From an uncultured Chitinophaga sp. (lineage in GTDB: Bacteria > Bacteroidota > Bacteroidia > 2-12-FULL-35-15), in the NCBI GenBank assembly GCA_964456225.1, contig CAYWAV010000001.1, forward strand, positions 24,453 to 88,452: a stretch of 64,000 bases of DNA, in the 5' to 3' direction. The notes under the pieces were generated by a model. The model was given only the letters and a program-made list of their open reading frames with translations, was not told the origin of the DNA and made no database searches. This document shows positions 3,637 to 55,942 of the stretch, in pieces. The position numbers and the translations under genes were made by a program. Within the stretch, counting starts at the first letter, position 1. Each line of letters begins with the position of its first letter.

Positions 3637-3640
3637 TTTT

Positions 3641-5253: not shown

Positions 5254-5284
5254 TTATCTAAGTCCTATTTTTTTCTCTGCTTTT

Positions 5285-6337: not shown

Positions 6338-6351
6338 TTTAAATTGTTATT

Positions 6352-11319: not shown

Positions 11320-11324
11320 TGAAA

Positions 11325-12596
11325 TTAGTTTAGTAATCGGAGATAAATTTTTTTATACTTTTCTATTCCATCATTTAAATCGTAATATCTTTTTGAAAGT
11401 TCTCTTATCTCACTTGGAGAATAAGTGGAGAAATATTTTGGTAAATGTTCTAAAGCAGTTAAATACGATTCATTAGAAAAATCATTAATCAGCAATCCTC
11501 CTTTTGTGTTTACAATAATATCGTCAACGTCTCCAATTTTTCTATTGCATATAACAGGGATTCCCATTGCCAAAAGCTCTCCTAGCTTTGTTGGAGAGCT
11601 GGATTTTTTAGAATAGGCGGGTTTGATAAAAGATAAACTGATGTTGGAAGCCTTAATGAATTTTGGAACATCTTTCCTTTTAGCGTTCACAATTTTTATA
11701 TCTGTAATTGATATTCCTTTTTGTTTTACAGAAGAAAGTATTGTTGCCTCTTCACCATTGCTTACAAATAAAAATTTCGCATCCGAATAATTAGTCTTGA
11801 TAATTTTAAAAAAGTCAAGCATTTCATTTAGCATGTACCATGTCCCAATTGAACCTAAATAGCTGACAACAAAATCATTTTCATGAAAACCTAAATCTGA
11901 TTTGGAAACAGCTTGTTCTTCCGCTGTTTGCAGTGAAAACAAGTCATAGTCGGCACAACAAGGAATCACATCAATGGGTGCGTTTTTGTAACTTGACCAC
12001 TTTTGCATTTCCTGTTTTCCATTTTCTGTTAACGACACAATTGTGTCAGCTGCTCCAATATAATTTGCTTCTTTTTTTTTGTAAATTTTATAGGCTTGTT
12101 TGTAGATTGGATTTTTTAAATTCCACAAGCCTCCATCTACACGCTCATCCACCCAGAAACCTCGGATGTCAAATAAAAATTTTATTCCAAATTTCTTTTT
12201 TAAATAATAGCCAATTGCAGCAGCAACGTAACTCCGACAATGTACTAATGAGAAGTTATTGAATTTGTGTAAGCGAACGGCTGTGCGTTTAATTTTATTT
12301 AAATCGTAAAATTTGGATAAAATGGGAGGAGAGGAAGTAAAAAAAACATGTTCCCATTTTATGCTATTTGTTTTTAATAAATTGGCAATAAATTCACCTT
12401 GAACTTCAAATTTGTCTTTTTTTTCACAACTTAACAACGTTATGGTATAACCAGCTTTGCTCAAACCAATAAGATAGGGGATAACTTGCGACTGGCCCAA
12501 AGGGTCGGTCATTCCATCATACGAAATATATAGAATATGCTTGTTCAATGTCTGTTTAATACACAAAGATAGTAAGGTAGAAGAAATAGCAATCAA
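11325..12596 (-). CDS. GT-B glycosyltransferase (family 1/4)
   Basis: 423-aa ORF with the conserved N-terminus ILYISYDGMTDPLGQSQVIPYL and C-terminal GELLAMGIPVIC. No ATG precedes the conserved block. Possible starts are TTG at 12596 or TTG at 12548. Confidence 0.75.
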   Translation of the reverse strand: MIAISSTLLSLCIKQTLNKHILYISYDGMTDPLGQSQVIPYLIGLSKAGYTITLLSCEKKDKFEVQGEFIANLLKTNSIKWEHVFFTSSPPILSKFYDLNKIKRTAVRLHKFNNFSLVHCRSYVAAAIGYYLKKKFGIKFLFDIRGFWVDERVDGGLWNLKNPIYKQAYKIYKKKEANYIGAADTIVSLTENGKQEMQKWSSYKNAPIDVIPCCADYDLFSLQTAEEQAVSKSDLGFHENDFVVSYLGSIGTWYMLNEMLDFFKIIKTNYSDAKFLFVSNGEEATILSSVKQKGISITDIKIVNAKRKDVPKFIKASNISLSFIKPAYSKKSSSPTKLGELLAMGIPVICNRKIGDVDDIIVNTKGGLLINDFSNESYLTALEHLPKYFSTYSPSEIRELSKRYYDLNDGIEKYKKIYLRLLN

Positions 12597-12625
12597 ATAA
12601 CTACTTTTGTATTCAAATCAAGAAT

Positions 12626-13207
12626 ATGGAACTCGTCTTCGCAACAGCCAATCAAAATAAAGCCAAAGAAATTCAATCTTTAATTCCAGATTCTATAGAA
12701 ATTTTGAGTCTTAATGACATTCATTGTCTAGAAGAAATCCCTGAAACACAAGCTACAATTGAAGGAAATGCCTCGCAAAAAGCCTTTTATGTGTATGAAA
12801 AATACCAGCAAAACTGTTTTGCGGATGATACAGGCTTGGAGATAGAAGCGTTGAATGGTCAGCCGGGTGTGTTTTCAGCCCGATATGCTGGTGAGGCAAA
12901 AAATGCCAATGATAATATGGATAAAGTGCTGTTAGAATTGAAGGGAATAGATAATCGCAAGGCGCGTTTTAAAACAGTTATCTCATTGGTAATCAACGGA
13001 GAAGAGTTGCAGTTTGAAGGCATAGTCGATGGAACAATTCTAATTGAAAAGCGGGGTGGAAGTGGATTTGGTTACGATCCGATATTTTTACCTGATGGTA
13101 GTAGCAAATCCTTTGCAGAAATGGAATTAGCTGAAAAAAATAAAAACTCTCATAGGGCTGCTGCTGTTAAGAAATTGGTAGAATATTTAATTAAGTTAAA
13201 GTTTTAG
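12626..13207 (+). CDS. rdgB: Non-canonical purine NTP pyrophosphatase (dITP/XTP, Ham1/RdgB family)
   Basis: 193-aa ORF with FATANQNKAKEI, FADDTGLEIEALNGQPGVFSARYAG and GFGYDPIF. Confidence 0.9.
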   Translation: MELVFATANQNKAKEIQSLIPDSIEILSLNDIHCLEEIPETQATIEGNASQKAFYVYEKYQQNCFADDTGLEIEALNGQPGVFSARYAGEAKNANDNMDKVLLELKGIDNRKARFKTVISLVINGEELQFEGIVDGTILIEKRGGSGFGYDPIFLPDGSSKSFAEMELAEKNKNSHRAAAVKKLVEYLIKLKF

Positions 13208-16129: not shown

Positions 16130-16526
16130 GTCACCCAGAGCGGAGTCGAAGGGTGTGCGTGAGAATTAAAAACTCCAATTTCTTTATGAAGACACTATAT
16201 GTTTATATTCTGACGTGTTCAGATAGTTCTTTTTATATTGGAGTTACCAACGATTTAGAAATGAGATTTGAGCAACATATTCAGGGAATTAATCGAAATT
16301 GTTACACTTTTCAAGAAGGCCATTGGAGATAGTTTTTTATGAATTATTTAATGATCCTTTATCCGCTATAGCATTTGAGAAGAAGTTGAAAGGTTGGAGC
16401 AAAAAGAAAAAACAAGCCTTAATTAATAGTGATTGGGCTAAACTTAAAGATTTGGCCATTTGCAAGAATCATTCACATTTTAAGAATGTTATCGTTTCCA
16501 CTCCCTTCGACTCCGCTCAGGGTGAC
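16130..16526 (+). mobile_element. GIY-YIG nuclease gene bracketed by 26-bp inverted repeats (putative small mobile or selfish cassette)
   Basis: The left arm is GTCACCCAGAGCGGAGTCGAAGGGTG (16130-16155). The right arm CTCCCTTCGACTCCGCTCAGGGTGAC (16501-16526) has the reverse complement GTCACCCTGAGCGGAGTCGAAGGGAG, a 24/26 match. A related arm pair with no cargo occurs at 49913-49970. Confidence 0.55.
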
Positions 16527-26777: not shown

Positions 26778-27094
26778 ATTAGTGCGTTTAGTAATGCATA
26801 CCAAAACCTATTCTAATAAAATATAATGTTTTCAAGCGTTTTAATATTGAATTGAACAAAACTATTGTAGTTTGAACAGCATTTCAAGGACTACAGGTTG
26901 TAATTACAAACATAAGTTTGTTAATAACCGATTAATAGCCTTCTCTTGATCAAGAAAGTTTTTTGTGTTTAAAAATTCCGCCTTCATCTTTTAAATAAGG
27001 CATTTTGGAGGTGTGAGGCTTGGTGTGCGATAAGAAATCAGCAAGGTTATGAACATTTGCTTTTTAATAAACAGGTGTTGTGATTCAGTGGAGA

Positions 27095-28195
27095 TTAATT
27101 TGAACGAGTTGGGAACTCATGAATTTTGGCATTATACCAAAATCCAATTGTGTTGTTGTATTTAAAAACAGGGAGGTCGAACTTCAATTCCATTGTATAA
27201 GGTTTTTGTACATAAAAATCATCATATACTTTCCCTTTATAAAAATATTTCGGTTGATTGATGTTGTCGTAAAAAAGTATTCCGTTTTCACCAGCGATGA
27301 TGCTCTGTTGGTTAACAAGCGGCTGTGAATAAATCTCCCCTCGATAAACAATTTTTAATTCAGAATTATAAGAATAATAAAAAACGTTTCCTTTCCCGGA
27401 AAAATAATCAGGACTACGGGAGTCAATTTTTGTAATAGCTCCATCATAAAAAATGTAAAAATTATCTTTTGCATCTACATACGCTACCAAATCATTAATA
27501 ACAAGGTATTCTTTTATAATTTCTTTACTTATGATTTTGAACGAACCTTTATAAAAAACATTGAATGTGCTTTTGTATTCATCTATAAATGCGACAATAT
27601 TATGTCCGCATTCATAACTGGTCACTCGATTATTGTCGGAAGTATAGATTTCGCCTTTAAAATAAACCTTTAAATCATTATTTAAATCATTAAAGGCCAT
27701 AATGTTGTTATTGATCTTATAATCATTAATAACACTTGAGTTTGTTGCTTTAATAATTGTTTTTGTTTGACCATCTGTATAAGCCACATAATCTAAGCTG
27801 GGTAATGCTTGCCATATAATGATAGAATCACTCGCAAAAAAAGCATCTGCTCTTTTAGCAAGTTGTTTCGTTTCTCCTTTCTCACAAAGCATCAAACGTT
27901 CTTGCATTTTATAAACTAAAGCAGGTGCAGTAGCAACTACTTTGTTAGGAAAATTCTCTTCCAAAACTTGGCTGTAGCCATTGTAATAATAAACAAAACT
28001 TAGTTTTGAGTCGGTATAAGCAACATAGTCGTTCCCCGAATAAATATCTGTGACTTTATTGAACTCTGCTTTTCGTTCAATCCCTTTGTCGAAAACATAA
28101 AAGGCGTTAGTGTAATCATGATAATAACCTTGTCCGTTTTGTGAGAACGAAAGCGAAATTTTTACACAGAGAAGAATTGAAAACCAATAGTTCAT
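27095..28195 (-). CDS. Repeat protein of unknown function (about 8 tandem Tyr/Phe-rich repeats of about 40 aa, possible beta-propeller)
   Basis: 366-aa ORF with a recurring unit of the type YVAYTDSKLSFVYYYNG / IVAFIDEYKSTFNVFYKGSF / LVAYVDAKDNFYIFYDGAI / ELKIVYRGEIY / PKYFYKGKVY. Confidence 0.6.
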   Translation of the reverse strand: MNYWFSILLCVKISLSFSQNGQGYYHDYTNAFYVFDKGIERKAEFNKVTDIYSGNDYVAYTDSKLSFVYYYNGYSQVLEENFPNKVVATAPALVYKMQERLMLCEKGETKQLAKRADAFFASDSIIIWQALPSLDYVAYTDGQTKTIIKATNSSVINDYKINNNIMAFNDLNNDLKVYFKGEIYTSDNNRVTSYECGHNIVAFIDEYKSTFNVFYKGSFKIISKEIIKEYLVINDLVAYVDAKDNFYIFYDGAITKIDSRSPDYFSGKGNVFYYSYNSELKIVYRGEIYSQPLVNQQSIIAGENGILFYDNINQPKYFYKGKVYDDFYVQKPYTMELKFDLPVFKYNNTIGFWYNAKIHEFPTRSN

Positions 28196-28198
28196 GAA

Positions 28199-28912
28199 CT
28201 AGAAATTTGGTTTTAATAAATACTTAGAATAAAATTCATTGATTATTGAAACAGCTTCATCCGCAGTCTCAACAATTTTAAATAATTCCAAATCTTTTTC
28301 GCTGATATTGTTTTCTTCAAGTAGCATTGTTTGTTTCACCCAGTTTAACAAGCCTTCCCAATATTTTTTTCCAACCAATACAATAGGGAAGTGAGCAACT
28401 TTATTTGTTTGAATTAAAGTAATGGCTTCAAATAACTCATCCAATGTGCCAAATCCGCCCGGCATTGCAATAAACCCTTGTGAATATTTTAGGAAAATGG
28501 TTTTTCTTACAAAGAAATAATCGAAATTGATATTTTTATCATTGTCAACAAAAGAATTAGAGCTTTGTTCAAATGGCAAAACGATGTTTAAACCAACCGA
28601 TTTTCCTCCTCCTGCTTTTGCTCCTTTGTTGGCGGCTTCCATAATTCCTGGTCCGCCACCACTTATTACTCCATAACCTTCTCGTGTAAGTTTAAATGCA
28701 ATTTCTTCAGCTAGTTTATAATATGGATTTGTAGTTTTTGTTCGTGCAGATCCAAAAATAGAAACACATGGTCCAATCCGACTCATTTTTTCAAATCCTT
28801 CAACAAACTCGCTCATGATTTTAAAAATCTGCCACGAGTCGGCCGCTTTAATATCATTCCAGTCTTTTGATGCAAATGCTTTTCTGATTTTGTCTTCGTC
28901 TTGGTTTGTCAT
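28199..28912 (-). CDS. LOG-family / TIGR00730 Rossmann-fold nucleotide-binding protein (cytokinin riboside 5-prime-monophosphate phosphoribohydrolase-like)
   Basis: 237-aa ORF with GYGVISGGGPGIMEAANKGA and PGGFGTLDELFE motifs. Confidence 0.85.
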   Translation of the reverse strand: MTNQDEDKIRKAFASKDWNDIKAADSWQIFKIMSEFVEGFEKMSRIGPCVSIFGSARTKTTNPYYKLAEEIAFKLTREGYGVISGGGPGIMEAANKGAKAGGGKSVGLNIVLPFEQSSNSFVDNDKNINFDYFFVRKTIFLKYSQGFIAMPGGFGTLDELFEAITLIQTNKVAHFPIVLVGKKYWEGLLNWVKQTMLLEENNISEKDLELFKIVETADEAVSIINEFYSKYLLKPNF

Positions 28913-28978
28913 AATACGGATAGCGAATTTTTACGAATTTACAAATATTATAATTGTTTTATGAATTGATTAGTGCGT

Positions 28979-31837
28979 TCAACGATATTCTTCCCTCAGA
29001 AATTGTGCCGTATAACTTATTTTATTTTTAATTATTTCCTTTGGCGTCCCTATACATAAGATTTCTCCGCCTGCATTTCCACCTTCTTTTCCTAAATCAA
29101 TAATGTAATCAGCTACTTTAATAATATCCATGTTGTGTTCAATCACCAAAACGGTATTCCCGTTGTCCACCAATTTACTTAATACTTCCAATAAAATTCG
29201 GATGTCTTCAAAATGCAAGCCAGTGGTTGGCTCATCTAAAATATAAAATGTATTTCCAGTATCGCGTTTTGATAATTCTGTTGCTAGTTTAACACGTTGT
29301 GCTTCACCTCCCGAAAGTGTTGTGCTTTGCTGTCCAAGCGTAATATACCCCAATCCAACTTCTTTCAATGTTTTTATTTTCTGAAGTATCGAAGGAATGC
29401 TGCTGAAAAACTCAACAGCAGTATCAATGGTCATGTTTAATATGTCACTGATTGACTTTCCTTTGAAACGAATTTCTAATGTTTCTTTGTTGTAACGTTT
29501 TCCATTACATGTTTCACAATTCACATAAACATCGGGCAAAAAATTCATTTCAATTGTTCTTAAACCTGCACCTTGACAAGTTTCACATCTTCCACCTTTA
29601 ACGTTAAAAGAAAACCTTCCTGCTTTATAGCCTCTGATTTTTGCTTCAGGAATTTCTGCAAACAATGTTCGAATATCAGAAAATACATTTGTGTAAGTTG
29701 CCGGATTACTTCTTGGAGTTCTGCCAATCGGTGACTGGTCAATATCTATTACTTTGTCGATGTGTTCCAAACCCGTAATCGATTTGTAAGGCATAGGTTT
29801 TTTTTCGGAGCGGTAAAAATGTTTGTTTAAGATTGGGTATAATGTCTCGTTAATGAGTGTTGATTTTCCACTTCCTGAAACGCCAGTCACACAGATTAAT
29901 TTCCCCAATGGAAACTCAACTGAAACATCTTTTAAATTGTTTCCTTTTGCTCCTTTTAAAACTAATGATTTACCACTTCCTTTTCTGATTTCTTTGGGAA
30001 TGGGAATTTCTTTCACGCCATTTATATAATCGGAAGTAAGTGTGTGAAATTTTAAAATTTCTTTAGGTGTTCCTTGAGCAATTATTTTCCCACCATGTAT
30101 TCCAGCAGCCGGACCAATATCAATCACATGATCTGCAGCTAAAATCATTTCCTTATCATGTTCCACTACAATTACTGAGTTACCAATGTCGCGAAGGTTT
30201 TTAAGTGCATTGATCAGTCGAACATTGTCGCGTTGATGCAAACCTATGCTCGGCTCATCTAAAATATACAAAACACCAACCAATTGTGATCCAATTTGTG
30301 TAGCTAATCGTATACGTTGTGCTTCACCACCCGATAAAGTTCTGGAGCTTCTGTTTAATGAAAGGTAATCCAATCCAACATCTAATAAAAAGGAAATGCG
30401 TGTTCTGATTTCTTTCAGTACTTCTTTTGCAATTGTGTTTTGTTTTGTGTTCAGTCGTTTTTCAATATTTTTAAACCATTCATTCAATTCAATAATTCCC
30501 ATTTCTGATAGTTCAGCAATGTTTTTATTGTCGATTTTAAAATGAAGAGATTCCTTTTTCAATTTACTTCCTTCGCATTTAGCACAAGGTACTTTATTCA
30601 TGAATCCTTGAATCCACTTTTCAATTGTTGGTGAACTTTGTTCATCATTTTGTTTAATGATGAAACTTGCTATTCCTTCAAATGCAATGCTATAGCTTGT
30701 TGCGGAGCTGTCGGAAAACTGTTTTATTTTAAATACTTCATCGGAGCCGAATAAGATGGTGTCAATTGCTTCATCGGAAATATCTTCAACCGGACTATCC
30801 AACGTGAAACCGTATTTATCACCTATGGCTTCTAATTGTTTGAATATCCATGTTCCTTTGTGCGGACCAATAGGAGCAATAGCTCCTTTACGGATGGATA
30901 ATTTTTTATTTGGAATTATTTTATTGATATCTACTTCAGAAATCATTCCTAATCCGTTGCATTTTGGACAAGCACCGTATGGTGAATTGAAAGAAAATAA
31001 ATTCGGCTGAGGTTCATCATAAGAAATTCCGGAGGTCGGACACATCAAATGGCGACTGTAAAATTCAACATTCCCGTATTCTTCTTCAATTTTGCCCATT
31101 TTAAAAGGTTGAACCATAATGATTCCTTTCCCTTGTTTCATGGCCAATTGCATGGATTCTGAAATACGTGGACGAGCTTCGGCATTTACTTCCAATCGAT
31201 CAATTACTATTTCAATATCGTGAACTTTATATCTATCGAGTTGAATTCTTTTGGTTAATTCTACCACTTCTCCGTCTATCCGAACTCTTAAATAGCCCCA
31301 TTTTTTTATTTGCTCAAAGAGTTCTCTGTAATGTCCTTTTCTTCCTTTTACAACTGGAGCTAAAATCAATATTTTTTGATTTTGAAATTTTTCCAGAATC
31401 AATTGTATGATTTGATCATCAGAGTAGCGAACCATTTTTTCTCCTGTAACATAAGAGTATGCATCAGATGCACGTGCATAAAGCAATCTCAAAAAATCAT
31501 AGATTTCTGTAATTGTGCCAACTGTTGAACGTGGATTTTTGTTTACTGTTTTTTGTTCAATAGAAATAACTGGGCTCAATCCTGTTATTTTATCTACATC
31601 CGGCCTTTCCATGTTTCCAAGAAACTGACGGGCATAGGCAGAAAAGCTTTCTATATAACGTCTTTGCCCTTCAGCATATATCGTATCAAAAGCCAATGAT
31701 GATTTTCCACTTCCACTTAAACCGGTTATTACCACCAATTTATTTCTGGGGATAGTAACATCAATATTTTTAAGGTTGTGGGCACGAGCGCCAACAACTT
31801 CCAAATAATCTATTTCACTTTTTACTGCACTCGACAT
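28979..31837 (-). CDS. uvrA: Excinuclease ABC subunit A
   Basis: 952-aa ORF with two ABC modules ([12 protein letters not shown] and [10 protein letters not shown]), two copies of LSGGEAQR and CxxC zinc-finger pairs. Confidence 0.95.
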
Positions 31838-31888
31838 TCTGTTTTAACTTAGGTAGTAGATATTAAAATGCTTGCTTTTTTATTTTTG

Positions 31889-31896
31889 CAAAGGTA
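31889..31896 (-). promoter_or_regulatory. Candidate -7 promoter box for uvrA (TACCTTTG on the minus strand)
   Basis: Plus-strand CAAAGGTA is the minus-strand TAnnTTTG, 52 nt upstream of the uvrA ATG. A TTG lies about 19 nt further upstream (plus-strand CAA at 31916-31918). Confidence 0.3.
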
Positions 31897-31933
31897 AGGA
31901 AGAATCCATTAGGAACAAGGTGTTTAACCTATT

Positions 31934-32539
31934 TTAATGGAGATTTTTAGCTAAAAATTCGATTGGATTATAGTAGTATTTTTCTAAGTCGGCCGGCTTA
32001 TAACAAATAAGTGAATAAGCGTTGAAAAGCCTCTCGGGTTGCAGGTTATTTGGTTTAATACTTACTGGCTTTATTTTTAAAATTTCTAAATGAAAATGAT
32101 CAAATTGCCAACCATGTTTGTTTAGCTCTGTTTTATTCATAAAACGTGCAATTGGCTTATCTGGAGTAACGGTTTCGTTTAAGCTGGCAGTTATGCCTGC
32201 AATGTGTTCATACAGTGTCCAAAATAGTTTATCTCCGATACGATGTTCAATTATTAGTTGAGCATAGGGTCCATCAGTTCGTTTACTGATTATTTTTCCT
32301 TTAGCAATAGCAAAAATGGGCTCATTAATATAATTACTGCTTGGTCGTTTAATATCAATTCCGGTATGAAGATGTGATGGAACTGTTTTTCTTTCTTTGC
32401 GAACGAGCCCGAATTTTCCGATTTCAGTTAACCGAATTTGTGAAATATCTTTCCTGTCATTCGTTTTTAAAGGGATATAAAATGGAGATGTTAATACAAG
32501 TGAGAAAAAAAAACAAGTAAAAAATGTTTTGAGAATCAT
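31934..32539 (-). CDS. M23-family metallopeptidase (peptidoglycan endopeptidase-like)
   Basis: 201-aa ORF with the HxxxD motif HLHTGIDI and the HxH motif HFHLEI, plus a signal/anchor at the N-terminus. Confidence 0.75.
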   Translation of the reverse strand: MILKTFFTCFFFSLVLTSPFYIPLKTNDRKDISQIRLTEIGKFGLVRKERKTVPSHLHTGIDIKRPSSNYINEPIFAIAKGKIISKRTDGPYAQLIIEHRIGDKLFWTLYEHIAGITASLNETVTPDKPIARFMNKTELNKHGWQFDHFHLEILKIKPVSIKPNNLQPERLFNAYSLICYKPADLEKYYYNPIEFLAKNLH

Positions 32540-32541
32540 TT

Positions 32542-33624
32542 TTATTCTTTTGGCTTATCTTCTTTCTTGATTGAATCGTTTAAAAGTGGGGCAGTAGTAA
32601 TTAAATTAACCGAATCGCTTTGTGTTAATTGATTACTCCCTTCGTAGTTGCCATCCAAATCATAAATGTTCATTGAACCTTTTGGAATTTCGATGACGTA
32701 TTTTTTTCCTCCTGTATTTGTCAATGAATTTGTTCTGAGCCAAGGATTAAATAATTTCAATATTTTATAGTTGATTCCTTGTGCAATTGAAAAATCGGCA
32801 AGATTGTTTATTGTTGTGTCTACGGTGATTTTTTTTGTTGGAATTGAAGGATACAAATCTTTTTTTCTGAGCATGTACCCGTATACTTTTGGCCTTGAAA
32901 TAATTTCTTTCATTGCAAGTATTCTGTATACGTATCTGGCTGTTTCTTCAGTTACAGCTAAATCGTAATAGCTGTTTACTTTTTGCTTTGCTAATTGTCC
33001 TTGAACACCGCCCATTCCTAAATTATAAGATGCCGCAACCAGTGTCCAGTTATTAAAAATCTTATGAGCTTCTTTAAAATATTTGCATGCTGCTTCAGTA
33101 GATTTTACAACGTGGTATCGTTCATCCACTTCTTCGGTAATCTCCATTCCATAACCTGTTCCTGTGGATTCAATTATTTGCCAAAACCCTGTTGCGCCTT
33201 GTGGTGAAACTACATTGGTGAGTTGACTTTCTATTAAAGCAATGTATTTAAAGTCTTCAGGAATACCATTTTTTTCCAGTATAGGTTCAATCACTGGAAA
33301 CCAACGATTAGCTCTTTTGTGTAATAAAAGCGTTTGCGATTGCCAATAGGTATTTACTATCAGCTCACGTTCGGTAGCTTCTCTTACACTGAAATCAGTT
33401 ATCGGTGTTTTTTCATCAGCAAAATTTAAATTCTTAGGAATTCGGATGCTAAACGTTTTATAGCTGGCATTAAAATAATCTTGGTATTCTCCATCGGATA
33501 TGCTATCACTTACTGAATAGGAGAATAGCTTTATAATGCTTATTAATGCAAGAGCAAGCCCAAAAGCGATGAAGTACTTTTTGGATGCTTTAAGATAGAA
33601 GACGACTTTTTCTTTCCGTTGCAT
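32542..33624 (-). CDS. Lytic transglycosylase (SLT domain, MltD-like) with a LysM-like C-terminus
   Basis: 360-aa ORF with the catalytic block IALIESQL, GFWQI and AASYNLG. Confidence 0.8.
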   Translation of the reverse strand: MQRKEKVVFYLKASKKYFIAFGLALALISIIKLFSYSVSDSISDGEYQDYFNASYKTFSIRIPKNLNFADEKTPITDFSVREATERELIVNTYWQSQTLLLHKRANRWFPVIEPILEKNGIPEDFKYIALIESQLTNVVSPQGATGFWQIIESTGTGYGMEITEEVDERYHVVKSTEAACKYFKEAHKIFNNWTLVAASYNLGMGGVQGQLAKQKVNSYYDLAVTEETARYVYRILAMKEIISRPKVYGYMLRKKDLYPSIPTKKITVDTTINNLADFSIAQGINYKILKLFNPWLRTNSLTNTGGKKYVIEIPKGSMNIYDLDGNYEGSNQLTQSDSVNLITTAPLLNDSIKKEDKPKE

Positions 33625-34703
33625 TATTTAGAATTCTTGCGCGTTGGTGCATAAAAGAAATAAAATAAAATCATAAAATAAACAGAAAACAATAGGATAT
33701 GGACATAACTCCATTCTTTTATATAAACGAGTATTAAATAACTTAAAAACATATTAATAAAACAAACCCCAGAATACATTAATGCAATTCTTTTTTCTGT
33801 TAAGCCCATATAAAAGAAATTGTGTGTTGTGTGGTCTTTCCCACCTACAAATGGCGACTTGCCTTTTCTTAAACGATTGATAACAACAGTTGTTGTATCA
33901 ATAATTGGAATTGCAAAAGTTAAAATAGAAATAAAGAATTGCTTCGTGTCATTAATGTTTTCATGATCAATACTTACCTCTTGTGGTGTCCAAAGATACA
34001 GTATCCCAATAGCAGCTAAAAACACTCCTAAGAACTGGCTGCCTGTATCCCCCATGAAAATTTTTGCTGGATGCCAATTGTAGAATAAAAATCCAATCAA
34101 GGCAGATAAAACTCCAATCAAAATGATTGTGTGAATCGTATGGCCATTTTTGTTGATATAGAGTACAAAGAGTGAACTTACAATTACTGAAATAGAAACT
34201 ATTGTAGTAATTCCATCCATATTATCGAGCATATTAATTGAGTTCATCATTGCCACTACCCAGAATAATGAAAACGCAATATTAATATAGTTGTTAGAAA
34301 ATAGTGTAATACAGGTGCCTGTGGATATTAAAATTAAACCACAACAAATTTGAATAATGAGTTTCAAAAAGGGTTTTGTATTATATGCATCATCAGATAA
34401 TCCAAGTAAAAATGCCAGTGTACATGCAGCCAAAAGTCCAAGTATTTGCTTGTTTACTAATACAGGTGTTTGCTCAAAAAAGATGGAATAGCTGGCAATT
34501 GAAAGAAGAAAAATGAGATAAAATGAAATTCCACCTAAAGAAGGCTTTGCAGAAGAGCTCCATCTGATTATTGTTTCTGAGGTATTTCGAATTCCCAAGT
34601 TTGAAGCAAACTTTAAAAATAAGCCATTTATCAGAAAAGACAAAATAACAGTGCTTATAAAGTAGCCGGCATAAATAATTAATAAATAAGTACGATGTTC
34701 CAT
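33624..34703 (-). CDS. Polyprenyl-phosphate N-acetylhexosamine-1-phosphate transferase (GT4 MraY/WecA family), initiating enzyme
   Basis: 359-aa polytopic ORF with NSINMLDNMDGI and FMGDTGSQFLG motifs. Confidence 0.8.
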   Translation of the reverse strand: MEHRTYLLIIYAGYFISTVILSFLINGLFLKFASNLGIRNTSETIIRWSSSAKPSLGGISFYLIFLLSIASYSIFFEQTPVLVNKQILGLLAACTLAFLLGLSDDAYNTKPFLKLIIQICCGLILISTGTCITLFSNNYINIAFSLFWVVAMMNSINMLDNMDGITTIVSISVIVSSLFVLYINKNGHTIHTIILIGVLSALIGFLFYNWHPAKIFMGDTGSQFLGVFLAAIGILYLWTPQEVSIDHENINDTKQFFISILTFAIPIIDTTTVVINRLRKGKSPFVGGKDHTTHNFFYMGLTEKRIALMYSGVCFINMFLSYLILVYIKEWSYVHILLFSVYFMILFYFFYAPTRKNSK

Positions 34704-34718
34704 AGTTATAAAAATGCT

Positions 34719-35261
34719 TTAAAAAATGCTTTCAAAATCCTCAAACCGTTTGCCTGTTTTGTCTTTTTCAGAAAGAGTTGGATTGTCTACTCCCCATTGT
34801 ATATTAAGCGTTTTGTCGTTCCATACAATAGTATCTTCCGATGCTTTGTTAAAAATATTTGTGCATTTATAGGAAAATATAGTGTTGTCTTCCAAAGTTA
34901 AAAATCCATGAGCGAATCCGGGAGGAATCCACAACATCGTTTTGTTTATTTCACTCAAAACAATATCAAAATGTTGTCCGTAAGTTTTTGATTTTTTTCT
35001 TATATCAACTGCAACATCTAGAATTGAACCTTTGATGGCCCTAACTAATTTCCCTTGTGCATAAGGCGGATTTTGGAAATGCAATCCTCGTAAAACATTT
35101 TTTTGAGAAAGTGATTGGTTGTCTTGTACGAATTCTTCCTTAATTCCAATTTTTTCAAAAGCTACTTTATTATACGATTCGTAAAAGTAGCCTCTCTCAT
35201 CTTCAAATATTTTTGGTTGAATAATAAATAAATCTTTAATTGGGGTGGTTAGCACTTCCAT
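34719..35261 (-). CDS. rfbC: dTDP-4-dehydrorhamnose 3,5-epimerase
   Basis: 180-aa ORF with ERGYFYESY, LRGLHFQ..PYAQGKLVR and IPPGFAHGF. Confidence 0.9.
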   Translation of the reverse strand: MEVLTTPIKDLFIIQPKIFEDERGYFYESYNKVAFEKIGIKEEFVQDNQSLSQKNVLRGLHFQNPPYAQGKLVRAIKGSILDVAVDIRKKSKTYGQHFDIVLSEINKTMLWIPPGFAHGFLTLEDNTIFSYKCTNIFNKASEDTIVWNDKTLNIQWGVDNPTLSEKDKTGKRFEDFESIF

Positions 35262-49846: not shown

Positions 49847-50215
49847 TCAATTAACTATTGAAGCAAAAATACGAATCTTTAATGGAACGGAGAATATTAT
49901 TGCTTTTGAACGCTTCTCGACTCCGCTCGAAGTGACTTTGCAACGGTCATTTCGAGCGGAGTCGAGAAAGGGCGTTGGATTGATGCTCAAATAGTTACTC
50001 CAAACCCAGCATGCTCTGAATGACTCTTTTCCTTCTTTCGTTTTTTTAAGGTTAGTTATGAGCATAATTGCCCTGTCGATTCGCTTTTGGGAGTTTTTAA
50101 CCGTGTTTACATAATGAATAATGTAACGTTGTTTTCCCGGTGTTAGCATTTTAAATCTTTTCATTCCTTCCGTATCTTGATCGAGCAGTTCTTTCAATTC
50201 TTCAGAAACTTCCAT
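49847..50215 (-). CDS. YdeI/OmpD-associated (bacteriocin-protection-like) domain protein; the C-terminal 60 aa are probably repeat-derived read-through
   Basis: 122-aa ORF. LTPGKQRYIIHYVNTVKNSQKRIDRAIMLITNLKK fits the YdeI C-terminal domain. The tail (...FLDSARNDRCKVTSSGVEKR...) is the translation of the hairpin at 49913-49970. Confidence 0.55.
   Translation of the reverse strand: MEVSEELKELLDQDTEGMKRFKMLTPGKQRYIIHYVNTVKNSQKRIDRAIMLITNLKKTKEGKESFRACWVWSNYLSINPTPFLDSARNDRCKVTSSGVEKRSKAIIFSVPLKIRIFASIVN
49913..49970. repeat. Family B long hairpin (two about 24-nt arms, 10-nt spacer), a cargo-less relative of the GIY-YIG flanking repeats
   Basis: CTTCTCGACTCCGCTCGAAGTGAC-tttgcaacg-GTCATTTCGAGCGGAGTCGAGAAAG. 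The arms share the core GAGCGGAGTCGA with 16130-16155 and 16501-16526. Confidence 0.8.
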
Positions 50216-50239
50216 CCCAAATTCACTCTCATCTTTTTT

Positions 50240-50512
50240 TTAGCTGACTGTTACTTCATCTTTAAATTTTAAGCCTAGTTTTTTTAAACGCGACATATTG
50301 ATGCTGATATAGCCGCTTCCATTTCCTAAAGCTACTAGTCCGCCCTGAAAAGTAAGTTTGCCATTGATGGTACACAACAACCGCATTTTGAACTTACCTC
50401 CTAATTTGACTATAATGTCGGGTGGTACTTCAAAATAGTGCATCCCTACAATGTGTTCCAGCGTGTAGATTTTACTTTTGTAAGAAATTTCAGTTTCTTT
50501 TTTCTTCGCCAT
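50240..50512 (-). CDS. DUF1905-domain protein
   Basis: 90-aa ORF. YFEVPPDIIVKLGGKFKMRLLCTINGKLTFQGGLVALGNGSGYISI fits DUF1905 as I recall it. Confidence 0.6.
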   Translation of the reverse strand: MAKKKETEISYKSKIYTLEHIVGMHYFEVPPDIIVKLGGKFKMRLLCTINGKLTFQGGLVALGNGSGYISINMSRLKKLGLKFKDEVTVS

Positions 50513-50521: not shown

Positions 50522-50545
50522 GAAAAAAAGGGGCATAGAGCCCCT
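50522..50545 (-). terminator. Rho-independent terminator of the SMC-like three-gene operon
   Basis: The minus strand reads AGGGGCtctatGCCCCTTTTTTTCT, a GC-rich 6-bp stem plus a T7 run. It lies about 135 nt downstream of the stop at 50679. Confidence 0.7.
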
Positions 50546-50678: not shown

Positions 50679-51206
50679 CTATTCTTCTTTTTCAGCATTT
50701 TCGTATTTCACAATGTCTGTTGCGAAATCCATGAAGAATTTGTGTGCAGATGTGAATACAAAGCGATTATCACCTGTTTTTTCGATGATGTTTCTTCTGT
50801 TTAAGGTGTTGATGAAGTTCTTTCTGGAATCCGCATCTTTCAACTGTTTGTTTGATAAAATCAAATCAATGTAAGAGGAGTTGGTGAAATAGTTTTCTAT
50901 TTCTTCCATTTCAAATTCTGAAAACTGAATTCTTTCAAGGAAATTTTTTCCGTCTCTGTCCAATTCATAACTCAACAATGAAATAAATATACAGATGTCA
51001 CGAGACAACATCTCTGCCGACTCTTCTGATACAAGATATGCGTAATCTTGCGTCAAACGCAATTCATAGTTAAATGACGCTTTGAAGAAATAAGTATACG
51101 ATTGCTCGTTATCTTTTACAGTTTGATACGTACGTTCGTTTGGCAGCATAAATTTGCCCGACATAAGATCTTCTACGATTTGGCGGTGGTGGTTAGGAAA
51201 TTCCAT
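50679..51206 (-). CDS. MukE/MksE/JetB-like (KITE-type) SMC accessory protein
   Basis: 175-aa ORF that is segment-wise collinear with E. coli MukE as I recall it. Matching segments are FNYELRLTQDYAYLVSE ~ YNVELIRAPEGFFYLRPR, LSRDICIFISLLSYEL ~ LSELDMMVGKILCYLYL, and LNRRNIIEKTGDNRFVFTSAHKFF ~ [26 protein letters not shown]. It has an acidic C-terminal tail, and its start overlaps the upstream gene by 14 nt. Confidence 0.55.
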   Translation of the reverse strand: MEFPNHHRQIVEDLMSGKFMLPNERTYQTVKDNEQSYTYFFKASFNYELRLTQDYAYLVSEESAEMLSRDICIFISLLSYELDRDGKNFLERIQFSEFEMEEIENYFTNSSYIDLILSNKQLKDADSRKNFINTLNRRNIIEKTGDNRFVFTSAHKFFMDFATDIVKYENAEKEE

Positions 51207-52410
51207 CTTGTGTATCGATTATTAGTGGTTGTTGATTGATAGTTACTTTCGGAACTGTTAAAGTTAAGTCGTTAATTTTGATTTTATCAAATTCTGGTTT
51301 TGCGCCATACTCACGCTCAATGTCTTCATCAAAAGCCAATGTAGTTAAAGCAAAGAACTTTTCAATTTCTACTTTTTTATAATCTTCCTTTAATGTAATG
51401 TTACACCAGTTGAAGAAATTGTGGACCGGTAAATTGTCCTTCAGCTTCTTTGTATAATGCTCTTTGTCGAAAATCCACTTTTCTGCTTCGTTTTCTTCTT
51501 CTTCAAAATAAACATCGGTTTCGTTTTTGAATTGTTCGAAAATTTCAGAAGCATTGTAAAACGTATCTTTTGAATAAACAGAAACTTCTTTTCTTTTAAG
51601 CAATTTTGGTGATTTGCGTTTGTAAGGATTTTTCAAATAAGTAATCCAGCCGGTTAAAATAATCGACTCAGTTCTGATGCGTTCGATCAATGGCAATAAT
51701 TCATTTGTCAGAATTTTAGATTGACGCAATAAATTGTCATTCACCTGAATCAATTGAAAATAAAGCTTTTCAAACTGAACACGAGCATTTTCATCATCAA
51801 AATTCAAACGGTATTTATTTGAATATTCAGAAATTTCATACAACTTATTCGCAACTGATGTTGAATGGTTAATATCCAAAATTTTATTCAATGGAATAAT
51901 ATATTCGTCAATCCAACGGGATGCACGAACAATTTTTTCACGGTAATCAATTTTTTTAACGTTTGCTTTTAACTCGCGGGTTTCAATCAATAAACTTTGT
52001 GTGTTGCGTTCCACCATTTCGTAAAACGAACGGACTTCAATAGCTAAGTCGTTCAAGCGTTGGCTCAAAGTTACTTTATCGCCATTAATGTTTTCTCTGA
52101 TTTTACGGAACAATTCCGCAATTGAAGTGTGGTATTTCTCAATTGTTTCCGGCAACATCGGTTTGAATTCGCTCAATACGAACTCAATCAAATTATAATA
52201 AACAGTACGAATTTCGTAGTTGTCGTTTACTGGACTCAATATCTTGTATTCAATCAATTGTGGACGAACGTCACTTTCGTGTTTCGCTACAATCTCATTC
52301 AATACTTCATACGCAATGATGCCTTCTTTGGATTGTGTTTCAAACAATTCAGCAATCACATCGTAATGTTCCAATAAAAAGCGGAGTATGGTTTTTGGTT
52401 CTGCCTTCAT
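51193..52410 (-). CDS. Putative kleisin-like subunit (MukF/MksF/JetA-like), assigned by size, helical character and position
   Basis: 405-aa ORF. It has an N-terminal wHTH-like region (ILRFLLEHYDVIAELF...YEIRTVYYNLIEFV), a long helical middle and an acidic linker (YFEEEENEAEKW). It is translationally coupled to the MukE-like gene. No diagnostic motif was recognised by eye. Confidence 0.4.
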   Translation of the reverse strand: MKAEPKTILRFLLEHYDVIAELFETQSKEGIIAYEVLNEIVAKHESDVRPQLIEYKILSPVNDNYEIRTVYYNLIEFVLSEFKPMLPETIEKYHTSIAELFRKIRENINGDKVTLSQRLNDLAIEVRSFYEMVERNTQSLLIETRELKANVKKIDYREKIVRASRWIDEYIIPLNKILDINHSTSVANKLYEISEYSNKYRLNFDDENARVQFEKLYFQLIQVNDNLLRQSKILTNELLPLIERIRTESIILTGWITYLKNPYKRKSPKLLKRKEVSVYSKDTFYNASEIFEQFKNETDVYFEEEENEAEKWIFDKEHYTKKLKDNLPVHNFFNWCNITLKEDYKKVEIEKFFALTTLAFDEDIEREYGAKPEFDKIKINDLTLTVPKVTINQQPLIIDTQDGIS

Positions 52411-52444
52411 TTGATTAGAATTATTTTTTTATTTTCAAATGGTG

Positions 52445-52489
52445 CAAGGATATGTTCGCTTTATTTTTTCTGCAAATAATATATCCTTG
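52445..52489 (-). other. Stem-loop in the 107-nt spacer between the SMC-like and kleisin-like genes
   Basis: CAAGGATAT (52445-52453) pairs with ATATCCTTG (52481-52489), giving a 9-bp perfect stem and a 27-nt loop. No T-run follows. Confidence 0.5.
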
Positions 52490-52517
52490 GTTCATTTTTT
52501 ATTATACTATTAATTGC

Positions 52518-55211
52518 TTAGTTCAAATTTTTTAAATTCTTCTTGTTAACTTTTTCCACAACACCATTTCTTTCTACTATCACGGCATTTTGTCTTTCGT
52601 TAATATTGATTTTTCCTTTTGAAGGATAAATGAAATAATATTTATTGAATCCTTCCACAGCATCTGGCGCAGCAAAAATTGGAATGAAATTATGTGAATT
52701 ACAGAATTTCACAAGCTCCGGACGATTTTGTTTATCTATCGTAGCAACTTCATCAATAAACAATGTGATTTTGTTTTGTTCGTCTGTGATAGCAAGTCTG
52801 TTGATGATAGCCATAATGATTACCAAACGAATCATTCTGTCTGTTCCGTCCGATTCAACTTGGTTTGCTAAATCCACACGTTTTTCTGTTCCTTTGATTT
52901 CCAATAATAATTCGATATTGAACAATTCATCAAAATGAACTTTTTTACCTGTATCCAAATAAGTGTTCAGAATTTTCAAGTTTTCTGATTGATCAAAATC
53001 AAAACTCATTTGTCCGTTGAACTCCTGAATAGAACTGATCGCTTTCAATTCACTCATGATACGCTCGTTATCTATCAAATCAATTTTTAATGATTCGATG
53101 TTGGAGATACGAGTTGTTGCCAATTTTGTATTGAACTTGTCGTAAACGAATTGTTTGAATTCTTCGTAACGTTTCAATAAAGTAAATGCAGGGTTTGCGA
53201 ATTGGGTAGAGATACTTGATAACAAGCCATCAATACTTCTTTCTTTATCGCTCAAACAAGCAATTTCTTCTTCCACAAAATTGATAAATTCTATTTCGTC
53301 AGCAATGCTGCTTCTTAAACGGTATTTTAATCCTTCGAACACAACATCTTTGTTTGCTTTAATATCGTGACGATCTTTTTGGTGAATTTGAATTTTCGAA
53401 TAGATGTAATCTAAGTTGTCATTGGTTTCGTATTCACGAGGTTCCACTTCAATGGATTCCATTTCCATTTTACGGTCTTTCAATTCTTTTACACGAAGTT
53501 CAAGATTGCGTTTTTCCTCGTTTAATTTATCCAACATGATTTGTTTAGAAGCAATTTCTTTTACTAAATCATTCAATTGCAATTCAAGTTCTTTTTTCTC
53601 TTCATTGAATCCTTTGATTTCTTCAATAATACCTTTAATCGCTTTCTCTAACTGAGGTTTGGTTTCAATGCCTTTGATTTTGTCCTTGATAACTTCTAAT
53701 TCTCCAAGGATGCTTTTTAACTTGAAATCTGTTTTTTCTTTGTCGACAACTGTTTTTAAAAGTTCCTCTGTTATTTTTTTCTCAGAAAGTAAAACTTTTA
53801 ATTCATCTTTCAATTCTTTAACAGAACGGAATTCGGTTAACTCTAATCCTTTTGAAATATCAATTTCACCATCAAAAATGTTCATCAATTTATCTGATAC
53901 TTTTTTGATTTGCTTTTTAATTTGTTTGCTTGGTAAACTCAATACTTGCTCCGAAAGGATAGCATTTAATAGCTGTTTCGTTTTTTCGTCATCTGAAATT
54001 TTGTGAATCAATAAGTTGTTGTAGTTGTTGATTTGATTTTCTACTGATGCAATTTTATCGGTCACTTTTTCTAAACGGAATTCCAAATGTTTGCTAGAAA
54101 GTTTTTGGCTTTCAATTGTTGTAATTCTGTTCTCGATTTCTTTACGTTCTTGATCCAAGTTTTTCATGGACTCTTTCAAGAACTCAATTGTTTCGTATTT
54201 GTTGATTTCATGCAATTCCACTTGCTTTTCGTTCAAGTAAGCAGTTTTGTTTTTGATTTCAGCATTTTTCTCACCGATGTAAGAAGCGAAATTTAATTCT
54301 TTCGGTTTTAAAATTTCATTAATCTCGTTGTGAATAGCTGCAATGTGGCGACCGCGTTCAACTGAAGATATTTCCAATTCCGGAATAGCAGCAGTGTAAG
54401 CAGTGTTGAATGCATATAACAATTCACTAACAATGCTGGTTTTTGAATTGTGAACTTTAACCAATTCACGAAAGTCTAAGAAGTCGGGACGAACAGCTTT
54501 GATACTTTTAATTTCTTCGTTTATACGAAGCAAATCGGTAATGTCTTTTTTGTTTTTCTGAGAAAAGTTTAATCCTTCATTCTCGCGGTTATCAGCAATA
54601 ATTAAAGATTCTTTCAAAGTTTTGTTGGTGATTAATTTAGAGTTAATCAAGTAACGGTAAACTTTTGAGAAGTTGTTGCTCAATCCGTCTGCTTTAACTG
54701 TATCTTCTAACCAAACAACAGCATTGTTCTTTGTTCCACGGTGGTAAACTGCGTTAAACACATCTGTTTTCGTTGCAAACTTGCTGTGCATCACACCACG
54801 TTTGTTTAAGTTTTCAACTACTTCATCAAAGCTCAACAAACGTTGGTGAGTGCCTTCCATCTCAAAGAAGAAGTCTTCGTTGTAATCACTTTCAATTTTA
54901 TAGTATTCCAGTTCACCATCTGTATTTCGTTTTACCAAAATGCAGTAGTAGCCCATTTTATTGATTTCAAAAATCAAGAAACTCTTGTTGTGAGTGGGGA
55001 AGTAGTGATGGATTGTTTCTTTATCACCTTTACGCTGACCGCTGAACGACATTTTTTGGCCGTCAACCACAAACAAAAAGTTCAGCGCATAGATTAGCGT
55101 TGATTTACCAATGTTGTTTGGTCCAACCAATTGGATAGAATCACAATTGTCGAGTTTCATTTCGGCCTTGCCGTAACCTTTTGAGTTAATTAAAGAGATT
55201 CGAGTAAGCAT
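52518..55211 (-). CDS. SMC/MukB/Rad50-like coiled-coil ABC ATPase
   Basis: 897-aa ORF with an N-terminal Walker A LVGPNNIGKST and about 450 aa of K/E/I/L-rich heptad sequence. The C-terminus has a signature-like QVESDGTDRM and a Walker B/D-loop ITLFIDEVATID. No CxxC zinc hook is present. Confidence 0.7.
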   Translation of the reverse strand: MLTRISLINSKGYGKAEMKLDNCDSIQLVGPNNIGKSTLIYALNFLFVVDGQKMSFSGQRKGDKETIHHYFPTHNKSFLIFEINKMGYYCILVKRNTDGELEYYKIESDYNEDFFFEMEGTHQRLLSFDEVVENLNKRGVMHSKFATKTDVFNAVYHRGTKNNAVVWLEDTVKADGLSNNFSKVYRYLINSKLITNKTLKESLIIADNRENEGLNFSQKNKKDITDLLRINEEIKSIKAVRPDFLDFRELVKVHNSKTSIVSELLYAFNTAYTAAIPELEISSVERGRHIAAIHNEINEILKPKELNFASYIGEKNAEIKNKTAYLNEKQVELHEINKYETIEFLKESMKNLDQERKEIENRITTIESQKLSSKHLEFRLEKVTDKIASVENQINNYNNLLIHKISDDEKTKQLLNAILSEQVLSLPSKQIKKQIKKVSDKLMNIFDGEIDISKGLELTEFRSVKELKDELKVLLSEKKITEELLKTVVDKEKTDFKLKSILGELEVIKDKIKGIETKPQLEKAIKGIIEEIKGFNEEKKELELQLNDLVKEIASKQIMLDKLNEEKRNLELRVKELKDRKMEMESIEVEPREYETNDNLDYIYSKIQIHQKDRHDIKANKDVVFEGLKYRLRSSIADEIEFINFVEEEIACLSDKERSIDGLLSSISTQFANPAFTLLKRYEEFKQFVYDKFNTKLATTRISNIESLKIDLIDNERIMSELKAISSIQEFNGQMSFDFDQSENLKILNTYLDTGKKVHFDELFNIELLLEIKGTEKRVDLANQVESDGTDRMIRLVIIMAIINRLAITDEQNKITLFIDEVATIDKQNRPELVKFCNSHNFIPIFAAPDAVEGFNKYYFIYPSKGKININERQNAVIVERNGVVEKVNKKNLKNLN

Positions 55212-55239: not shown

Positions 55240-55247
55240 CAAATATA
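55240..55247 (-). promoter_or_regulatory. Candidate -7 promoter box for the SMC-like operon (TATATTTG on the minus strand)
   Basis: Plus-strand CAAATATA is the minus-strand TAnnTTTG, 29 nt upstream of the ATG at 55211. No convincing -33 TTG was seen. Confidence 0.3.
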
Positions 55248-55405
55248 CTTTAAGGACTTGGGCTATTTGTTGAGGGAATTACTTGTTAATAACAATTCCT
55301 TTAAAATTGGGGAGAAGGAAGGTTTTATGTTAAAAAAATTAAAGTTTTTAAAAGTTTTAACAGGCACTTGATTATTGGAAAAAAATGATTATAACTATTA
55401 AAGCG

Positions 55406-55532
55406 TTAGCCGCAGATTCGCAAATTTCTTTGTTTACAAAAAATTAAGGCAGATACAGTGTTTGTGTCGCTTGAATAAGTTTAGAATCAGCACTAATAAT
55501 TTAAGTATAAAAATCTGAGAATCTGCGGCTAA
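55406..55532. repeat. 127-bp element bounded by perfect 14-bp inverted repeats (MITE-like or long structured RNA)
   Basis: TTAGCCGCAGATTC (55406-55419) and GAATCTGCGGCTAA (55519-55532) flank 99 bp of AT-rich sequence. The element lies in the 335-bp gap upstream of the SMC-like operon. Confidence 0.65.
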
Positions 55533-55546: not shown

Positions 55547-55942
55547 TTACAAAAAGGTTTTTAACCAAGCTATTGCAGATTCTTTGTTGGTCATAATTTT
55601 TGTAGGAGTAATGGGTTTGTTAAAAGTAATGTATGCATTTCCCATGATTTTTTGTATGCTATTGTTTACTACAAATACGCTAGCCAAGGTGTACTGATTT
55701 GCTTCAATTCCAGAAGCGTATTTTCGAGCGTCAGGACTTGCCAATGCAAAATCACCAGCAATAAAAAGTAAAGGATATTTTTTGCCTCCACCCACTTCTG
55801 CGAAAGCGTTCACTATTTGCTTACCATCAATCAATTGAAGCGTCTTGTTTGCATTCATTTCAATTTGAATAATTCCATCGCTCCGCAACGACACAATGGT
55901 GGAAGCATTAACTATCGATTTAAGAAGTGTGATTTCGCTCAT
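55547..55942 (-). CDS. Hypothetical protein (possibly STAS/SpoIIAA-like fold)
   Basis: 131-aa ORF lying 8 nt downstream of mtaB. No motif was recognised and the fold guess is weak. Confidence 0.4.
   Translation of the reverse strand: MSEITLLKSIVNASTIVSLRSDGIIQIEMNANKTLQLIDGKQIVNAFAEVGGGKKYPLLFIAGDFALASPDARKYASGIEANQYTLASVFVVNNSIQKIMGNAYITFNKPITPTKIMTNKESAIAWLKTFL

Follow-up and report, generated by a model that had tools for sequence, protein, structure and literature searches.

Condensins related to MukBEF, MksBEF and JetABC combine an SMC-like ATPase with a kleisin and a KITE subunit. MukBEF of Enterobacteria, encoded in the order mukF-E-B, is a nuclease-free chromosomal condensin. MksBEF of Pseudomonas aeruginosa, ordered F-E-B, is likewise nuclease-free; compaction and segregation of the host chromosome by ATP-driven loop extrusion is reported for both, and MksBEF is regarded as a Wadjet derivative that lost JetD (PMC10586767). 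The Wadjet systems themselves (JetABCD or MksBEFG, types I-III) act against plasmids and carry an adjacent Toprim nuclease, JetD/MksG, on which plasmid cleavage depends; their distribution is patchy, and many lie in defence islands or on plasmids. In the literature MksB is the ATPase, the operon is written mksFEBG, and MksG consists of DUF3322 plus DUF2220 (PMC10123090). An origin of MukBEF and MksBEF from plasmid-restricting Wadjet systems that lost the nuclease has been suggested by specialists, though direct evidence was lacking (PMC10586767; 10.1101/2025.03.10.642339), and this domestication hypothesis is set out in 10.1101/2025.03.10.642339. Here we describe a three-gene operon of this superfamily, with an unusual gene order and no nuclease, on a 64,000-nucleotide stretch (hereafter the window) of contig CAYWAV010000001.1 from an uncultured Chitinophaga sp.

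Throughout, B denotes the SMC-like ATPase, F the kleisin, E the KITE subunit and D a JetD_C/Toprim protein. The operon was first picked out in an earlier note made from the sequence alone, and its three minus-strand open reading frames (ORFs; 897, 405 and 175 amino acids, aa), the 107-nucleotide (nt) spacer between B and F and the 14-nt overlap of F and E were all found exactly as described there:

52518..55211, minus strand: B, ORF of 897 aa (ORF call)
52411..52517, minus strand: B-F spacer of 107 nt, the site where relatives encode the JetD_C/Toprim gene D
51193..52410, minus strand: F, ORF of 405 aa (ORF call)
50679..51206, minus strand: E, ORF of 175 aa (ORF call), its start overlapping the end of F by 14 nt

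Our analysis suggests that a plasmid-cutting machine was here turned into a housekeeping DNA organiser. We consider it probable (roughly 0.6) that the operon encodes a domesticated, nuclease-free condensin of the MksBEF type, which would extrude loops on the host chromosome for its compaction and segregation. The observations behind this reading concern the homology and folds of the proteins, the loss of D, gene order, selection and synteny.

The locus belongs to the Mks/Wadjet (MukBEF/MksBEF/JetABC) superfamily, because E matches the MksE family, the model of F resembles JetA and MukF, and the model of B resembles MukB, then Rad50 and JetC. The assignment of the three products to SMC ATPase, kleisin and KITE in the earlier note is thus borne out. 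Specifically, E matches Pfam PF21980, 'Condensin complex protein MksE', with an E-value of 2.4e-21 over positions 2-161 of 163, a near full-length match that at the sequence level predicts a KITE subunit of the MukE/MksE/JetB kind. NCBI names some E homologues 'condensin complex protein MksE', and the relative of E from Ralstonia (Ral_E; see below) matches the MukE, DUF4194 and JetB1 models. The collinearity of the 175-aa protein with E. coli MukE that the earlier note had put forward received marginal support only: hhalign aligned 146 collinear columns (E-value 2e-4) with a widened family profile, and nothing with the narrow (shallow) one.

Structural comparisons were based on AlphaFold2 (AF2) models of B and F, searched with Foldseek against PDB, and the invariance of ATPase motifs on an alignment of 45 B homologues (56-94% identity). 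The main parts of B are the following:

52518..55211, minus strand: B, with head N 1-215, coiled coil 218-398, hinge-like domain 399-465, coiled coil 465-697 and head C 700-860 (AF2 model)
55098..55124, minus strand: Walker A GPNNIGKST, B residues 30-38, invariant in the 45 homologues, with Pfam AAA_21/AAA_29 P-loop matches
53817..54017, minus strand: hinge-like mid-domain, residues 399-465, ~65 aa, motif FDGEIDISKG (AF2 model and conservation)
52734..52862, minus strand: signature-like QxESDGTD (784-791) and Walker B/D-loop LFIDEVATID (817-826), invariant columns

The B model (predicted local distance difference test, pLDDT, 71.6) shows a split head and two helical arms (~180 and ~230 residues) with a conserved, small domain in the middle. 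Its top four PDB matches are all MukB (E-values 1e-16 to 1e-14; best 7nyw_B at 1.1e-16, also 9gm9/9gm6), followed by Rad50 (7zr1_C, 3.6e-11), JetC (9qxx, 2.7e-10) and Lamassu LmuB (4e-3). This ranking agrees with the SMC/MukB/Rad50-type architecture that had been read from the sequence, and it speaks against placing B in another ATP-binding cassette (ABC) clade such as that of LmuB, an outcome that had been named in advance as damaging to the proposal. The Walker A, signature-like and Walker B/D-loop motifs are present and invariant as claimed (the invariant columns include Q784, E786-D791, L817, F818, D820-V822, T824-D826 and H840), and the B sequence indeed contains no CxxC. Between the two long helical arms the model places a non-helical, low-confidence mid-domain in which F446, D447, G448 and I450 are invariant. 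The shortness of the ATPase to which the earlier note drew attention is probably not unusual for MksB-type proteins, given that the NCBIfam Mks ATPase model has 926 positions. On the model, therefore, B has the predicted head, two arms and mid-domain of an ATPase of the MukBEF/MksBEF/JetABC superfamily.

The AF2 model of F (pLDDT 60, low to moderate confidence) can be summarised as:

51193..52410, minus strand: F, predicted MukF/JetA/MksF-type kleisin in which a winged helix and then a helical bundle at the N-terminus are joined by an acidic, disordered linker (245-314) to a winged-helix-like domain at the C-terminus (316-392; AF2 model)

The C-terminal domain has a helix-strand make-up, and the top three Foldseek matches of the model are JetA (8q72_E, E-value 6.5e-5, 459 columns), MukF (9gm7_D) and MukF(1-287) (1t98_A). 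As modelled, the domain order is that of a MukF/JetA-type kleisin, with weak accompanying sequence matches to NCBIfam NF040857 (E-value 1.3e-4) and to the F-position protein of Salinibacter (blastp 2e-4). F had no match in our local Pfam copy; PF28010.1 is listed in the precomputed annotations of many close F homologues.

In a Pfam scan of the window proteins B gave only a weak SMC_N P-loop match (E-value 0.046) and there was no SMC_hinge, ScpA or ScpB match, which sets the locus apart from Smc-ScpAB. B matches its Ralstonia counterpart with an E-value of 2e-18, and the C-terminal B fragments of split orthologues match the end of DUF3584, a JetC/MukB-like family, at 1.8e-6, below the gathering cut-off. 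Neither the window ATPase nor E directly matched the NCBIfam Mks models. Searches of PDB sequences with B, F and E, as single sequences and as profiles, gave nothing relevant (coiled-coil noise only for B), and PADLOC called no Wadjet, Lamassu or other system among the window proteins, with no matches for F and E and only P-loop-level matches of B to AriA/HEC-01A.

Like MksBEF of P. aeruginosa, the operon lacks JetD/MksG and encodes three subunits, namely an SMC-like ATPase (~900 aa), a kleisin (~400 aa) and a small KITE, and by sequence it is linked to MksBEF through Pfam MksE and, via the Ralstonia and Salinibacter relatives, through NF040857/NF040858/NF040859. Unlike MksBEF, it is ordered B-F-E instead of F-E-B, and it forms a branch that is deeply diverged (since its ATPase and E have no direct NCBIfam Mks match), syntenic, vertically inherited and, as far as seen, confined to an uncultured Bacteroidota lineage. 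With Wadjet it shares the ATPase/kleisin/KITE superfamily and relatives that carry a Toprim (JetD_C) protein. However, the window has no nuclease, the D proteins of the relatives are short (~230-290 aa, about two-thirds of the matched JetD models of 382-430 positions), their genes are ordered B-D-F-E as opposed to A-B-C-D (F-E-B-G), and the PADLOC v2 models give sub-threshold matches only. The likeness to MukBEF consists of MukB as the best structural match of B, MukF among the top three of F, the marginal collinearity of E with MukE and the shared lack of a nuclease, whereas E. coli MukB (annotated 976326-980786, ~1,486 aa) has much longer arms and a larger hinge, the gene order there is mukF-E-B, and no similarity of F to MukF was detected at the sequence level.

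Relatives were collected by a pattern scan in which each GTDB species was represented by a single genome; it gave 269 species with a relative of E. Our locus comparisons cover the best 80 of these 269 species (loci L001-L080), with ~20 kb visible per genome; the best 80 are Bacteroidota metagenome-assembled genomes, bar a few records with organism names from other phyla. Wherever the contig allows, the order in these loci is B-F-E, so that the window and its relatives have SMC-kleisin-KITE in place of kleisin-KITE-SMC. The non-canonical order pointed out earlier is therefore a conserved trait, and judging from the sequences it departs from every described Muk/Mks/Jet operon. Full-length, intact B, F and E were found in ~59/80 species loci, and F and E overlap by 14 nt in nearly every one of 70 loci.

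The adjacent JetD/MksG Toprim nuclease of Wadjet is missing from the window: as the earlier note had held, no Toprim/JetD homologue was found there or in the B-F spacer by tblastn with four D proteins (E-values up to 10). It is present in relatives. A tblastn search of plasmids with B returned distant relatives on Salinibacter ruber pSR76 (L082) and on the Ralstonia solanacearum megaplasmid (L083), where the order is F (404-410 aa), E, B (879-909 aa) and a fourth gene, D (231-291 aa). Their E proteins match PF21980 (E-values 7e-21 and 8e-28), and F, E and B match NF040857, NF040858 and NF040859 (1.5e-14, 3.9e-25 and 2.2e-54). Both fourth genes match DUF7281 and the Salinibacter one also JetD_C. 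Compared with the 80 loci, these fourth-gene proteins match an ORF between B and F in L080 and L072. The D protein of L080 (265 aa) scores 26.7 bits against Pfam JetD_C (cut-off 22) and matches PADLOC JetD1 (E-value 1.4e-6), and the Toprim E and DxD motifs can be read in the D sequences of L080 and of the sister subfamily described below. A relic of D persists in L069, where its last 54 codons, 80% identical to those of L072, lie immediately upstream of F (E-value 2e-23). Apart from these three, no D homologue was detected among the 20-kb loci.

In a D-bearing sister subfamily (L084-L087), B, F and E are 45%, 42% and 50% identical to those of the window. Its genes overlap one another, run in the order B(886)-D(264)-F(403)-E(174) and lie in four distinct genomic surroundings. 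Chryseobacterium, Aequorivita, Daejeonia and a Chitinophagales genome share an F with 90% identity or more, which indicates that this subfamily has spread horizontally. Its distribution is patchy, as in accessory Wadjet systems, whereas that of the window family is not. B-D-F-E is a cyclic permutation of F-E-B-D, and B is adjacent to D in both.

A simple distance tree of B+F+E was built by neighbour joining, without support values, and rooted on the two plasmid systems. On it the D-bearing locus and the relic-bearing locus fall in one of two basal clades, and the clade of the window is entirely D-less. The simplest reading of these sequences is that D is ancestral and was lost secondarily, with probably more than one loss. 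As relatives encode D between B and F, the B-F spacer of the window would be its former place, and no remnant of D was detectable in it. The possibility that relatives carry an adjacent JetD that was lost here, which the earlier note had listed against its own proposal of a new system, thus holds in part: L080, L072 and the sister subfamily retain B-D-F-E and L069 retains the relic.

The four-gene, Wadjet-like systems (L082 4986-10817, L083 5231-10535 and L084-L087) are annotated as hypothetical proteins and were not called by PADLOC v2. We also note that NCBIfam 'MksB' (NF040857, 412 positions) matches kleisin-position proteins and 'MksF' (NF040859, 926 positions) matches ATPases. The two names appear to be swapped relative to the published nomenclature, and we have not relied on them.

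With regard to genomic context, mtaB lies upstream and lgt downstream of the operon across the clade of the window, down to ~73% protein identity, and the flanks differ in the deeper clade. No conserved fourth gene accompanies the operon in any clade among the best 80 loci. In GC content the operon is like its flanks. Against five close species, the ratio of non-synonymous to synonymous substitution rates (dN/dS) is 0.003-0.05 (~0.02) for B, F and E, and 0.03-0.09 for mtaB, lgt and a neighbouring solute-binding protein gene. Synteny, flank-like GC and dN/dS values below those of the neighbours speak for genes passed on vertically under strong constraint, and not for the accessory insertion that had been suggested for this locus.

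From these observations we infer how the complex may be built and what it may do. B would be a coiled-coil ABC ATPase dimerising at its small hinge, and F a MukF/JetA-type kleisin whose C-terminal winged helix and N-terminal region would close a ring on the B heads. The N-terminal winged helix and bundle of F would pair two complexes into a dimer of rings, as in MukBEF and Wadjet, and an E dimer would bind the middle of F. The ancestor is pictured as a four-gene, Wadjet-like B-D-F-E system in which D was a ~265-aa JetD_C/Toprim nuclease; D would then have been deleted, leaving only the spacer, and the D-less complex would no longer cleave DNA and would have been kept by vertical descent under very strong purifying selection. 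Since there would be no cleavage without D, what selection maintains is most likely the compaction and segregation of the chromosome, which would be driven by ATP-dependent loop extrusion on the host chromosome.

Several points weigh against a chromosomal condensin. The coiled-coil arms are short (~180-230 residues each), so that loop extrusion may differ from that of MukBEF. The F model is of low confidence (pLDDT 60), and hhalign of F against E. coli MukF gave nothing with either the shallow or the deeper (A4) family profile. In addition, any important function could lie behind such strong conservation, among them a nuclease-independent control of extrachromosomal DNA.

The last point leads to the explanation that competes best, although we consider it rather unlikely, namely that the operon is still a defence module in which BFE senses or entraps plasmid or phage DNA and either silences or sequesters it without cleavage, as proposed for Smc5/6, or relies on a nuclease encoded elsewhere. 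Its nearest relatives are indeed Wadjet-like systems with a Toprim nuclease, patchy and horizontally spread (F at least 90% identical across genera and contexts); its ATPase motifs are intact; and nuclease-independent SMC immunity has a precedent (PMC10586767). Yet an operon that is fixed, syntenic and under a dN/dS of ~0.02, below that of its housekeeping neighbours, is atypical of defence genes. No fourth gene is conserved beside it in any clade and no D homologue was found in the window or in the 20-kb loci other than L072, L080 and L069. Its surroundings consist of housekeeping genes and show nothing of a defence island, and no relatives of it were found on viral contigs.

We regard it as very improbable that the operon encodes a repair or recombination machine (Rad50/SbcC, RecN) or a Lamassu/ABC three-component (ABC-3C) sensor in place of a kleisin-closed ring. 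As in Lamassu (LmuB) and ABC-3C systems, the opening gene of the three encodes a coiled-coil ABC ATPase; moreover, B matches the structure of Rad50 strongly, B is short and hinge-poor, and a Chryseobacterium B homologue has weak PADLOC LmuB matches (E-value 6e-6). Nevertheless, MukB ranks above Rad50 by five orders of magnitude and LmuB is a weak match; B has no CxxC zinc hook, and there is neither an Mre11/SbcD partner (no SbcD-like gene in the operon by Pfam) nor LmuA effectors or LmuC. The Muk/Mks/Jet class is defined by the pair of partners that is seen here, a kleisin resembling MukF/JetA together with an MksE KITE. A functionless remnant, decaying after the loss of the nuclease, would fit the loss of D, the split B genes of occasional orthologues (L023, L045 and L056) and the foreign genes between B and F in L038, but this reading is strongly disfavoured by the selection data, namely intact B, F and E in ~59/80 loci, dN/dS of 0.003-0.05 and invariant catalytic motifs and promoter box.

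For the condensin reading, part of the picture is already known, as the E family is in Pfam (MksE) and the superfamily is an established one. What looks new is the permuted layout B-(D)-F-E, in which the mini-JetD of ~265 aa is Toprim-only; this layout was not called by PADLOC v2, and our literature search found no paper on it. The gradation inside the family, which leads from mobile systems with a nuclease to a fixed operon without one, also looks new. Literature on PF21980, PF28010, NF040857, DUF7281 and 'type IV Wadjet' was likewise searched and nothing was found. The family appears to show the Wadjet-to-condensin transition inside one clade, with mobile B-D-F-E, a chromosomal D, a decaying D and a large D-less clade. 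More tentatively, and with some doubt, a whole uncultured Bacteroidia lineage may have independently domesticated a hitherto undescribed, Wadjet-like and cyclically permuted B-D-F-E mini-JetD system as its main chromosome-organising condensin by deleting the nuclease. If true, this would parallel the proposed origin of MukBEF, with mobile four-gene, chromosomal four-gene, relic and three-gene stages all extant.

Authors of Hi-C work recognised no condensin in two Bacteroidetes, B. caecimuris and M. intestinale (PMC10197239). Our operon is a candidate chromosome organiser for its own Bacteroidota lineage, a claim that does not cover Bacteroides or Muribaculum. A list of Pfam families and a scan for motifs in all ORFs of 950 aa or more gave no canonical Smc in the window or in the fetched loci, although ~20 kb per genome is too little for this negative to be informative. 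If the genomes as a whole also lack Smc-ScpAB, the operon would be the 'missing' type of condensin sought by Bacteroidota Hi-C work.

Candidate regulatory elements flank the operon:

55284..55294, minus strand: perfect palindrome TGTTATTAACA, candidate operator upstream of the promoter box
55240..55247, minus strand: candidate Bacteroidota-type -7 promoter box TATATTTG, which fits TAnnTTTG and ends 29 nt before the B ATG
50529..50545, minus strand: hairpin resembling an intrinsic terminator, AGGGGC-TCTAT-GCCCCT and then a T run, downstream of E (terminator scan)

TAnnTTTG is the consensus of the Bacteroidota -7 box. Of the regulatory features that the earlier note had proposed, the -7 box at 55240-55247 is present and invariant in 11/11 aligned orthologous upstream regions, with variable flanks. 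The terminator (given as 50522-50545) was recovered as a terminator-like hairpin by a scan whose total of 4 sites is within the chance range (shuffle expectation 3.4). The 9-bp-stem hairpin in the B-F spacer, CAAGGATAT/ATATCCTTG, was seen at 52445-52489. It lies within an insertion of ~86 nt that is absent from the closest relatives (L001-L003), in which the B-F spacer measures 17-21 nt. The palindrome TGTTATTAACA, ~37 nt upstream of the -7 box, is also invariant in the 11 orthologous regions, with variable adjacent columns, and from this pattern may be a candidate operator for some regulator of the operon. Rfam and tRNA scans of the locus gave nothing above noise.

The B-F junction tolerates insertions, as L038 carries two genes there for type IX secretion system (T9SS)-secreted proteins (Por_Secre_tail; 318 and 1149 aa; L038 4312-8727), and F-E may have expression signals of their own.

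The sequence at 55406-55532, previously listed among dispersed repeats bordering the locus, is a single local inverted repeat, the core 12-mer of which occurs nowhere else in the window. We rejected dispersed repeats as insertion evidence: AGCCGCAGATTC is found only as the two arms of this one repeat, and synteny also speaks against them. The arms are 31 nt long, 81% complementary and 65 nt apart; the repeat is unique in the window, has no Rfam match and sits within the 335-nt gap between the ATPase gene and an upstream 131-aa DUF7793 gene (55547-55942, minus strand). The latter occurs in the closest clade only (L001, L003 and L017 were compared), with tandem duplicates in some relatives; it is not conserved together with the operon and probably has nothing to do with it.

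Downstream of the operon lies a DUF1905/YdeI(OmdA)-like gene (49847-50512, minus strand), which in L001 is one ORF of 172 aa. The window copy has an in-frame stop (...TVS*KKDESEF versus ...TISLKKDESEY in L001), and its 3' end runs into unrelated sequence. Probably this copy is a pseudogene, or else the sequence contains an error. Inside this altered 3' end is one copy, a 23-nt perfect-stem hairpin, of a GC-rich palindromic element with the core GAGCGGAGTCGA[AG], which occurs at three sites in the window (49914-49968, 16130-16157 and 16499-16526). A similar sequence is found in the B-F spacer of L012, and the element looks like a small mobile palindrome of the repetitive extragenic palindrome/miniature inverted-repeat transposable element (REP/MITE) kind. 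Elsewhere the window carries the housekeeping genes ddl, mutL, Ham1 and a UvrA-like gene, and a large share of it, at ~1-13000 and ~27000-35000, is taken up by genes for the biosynthesis of polysaccharides and sugar nucleotides (glycosyltransferases, a dTDP-sugar epimerase, FkbM and C-methyltransferases, and asparagine synthase).

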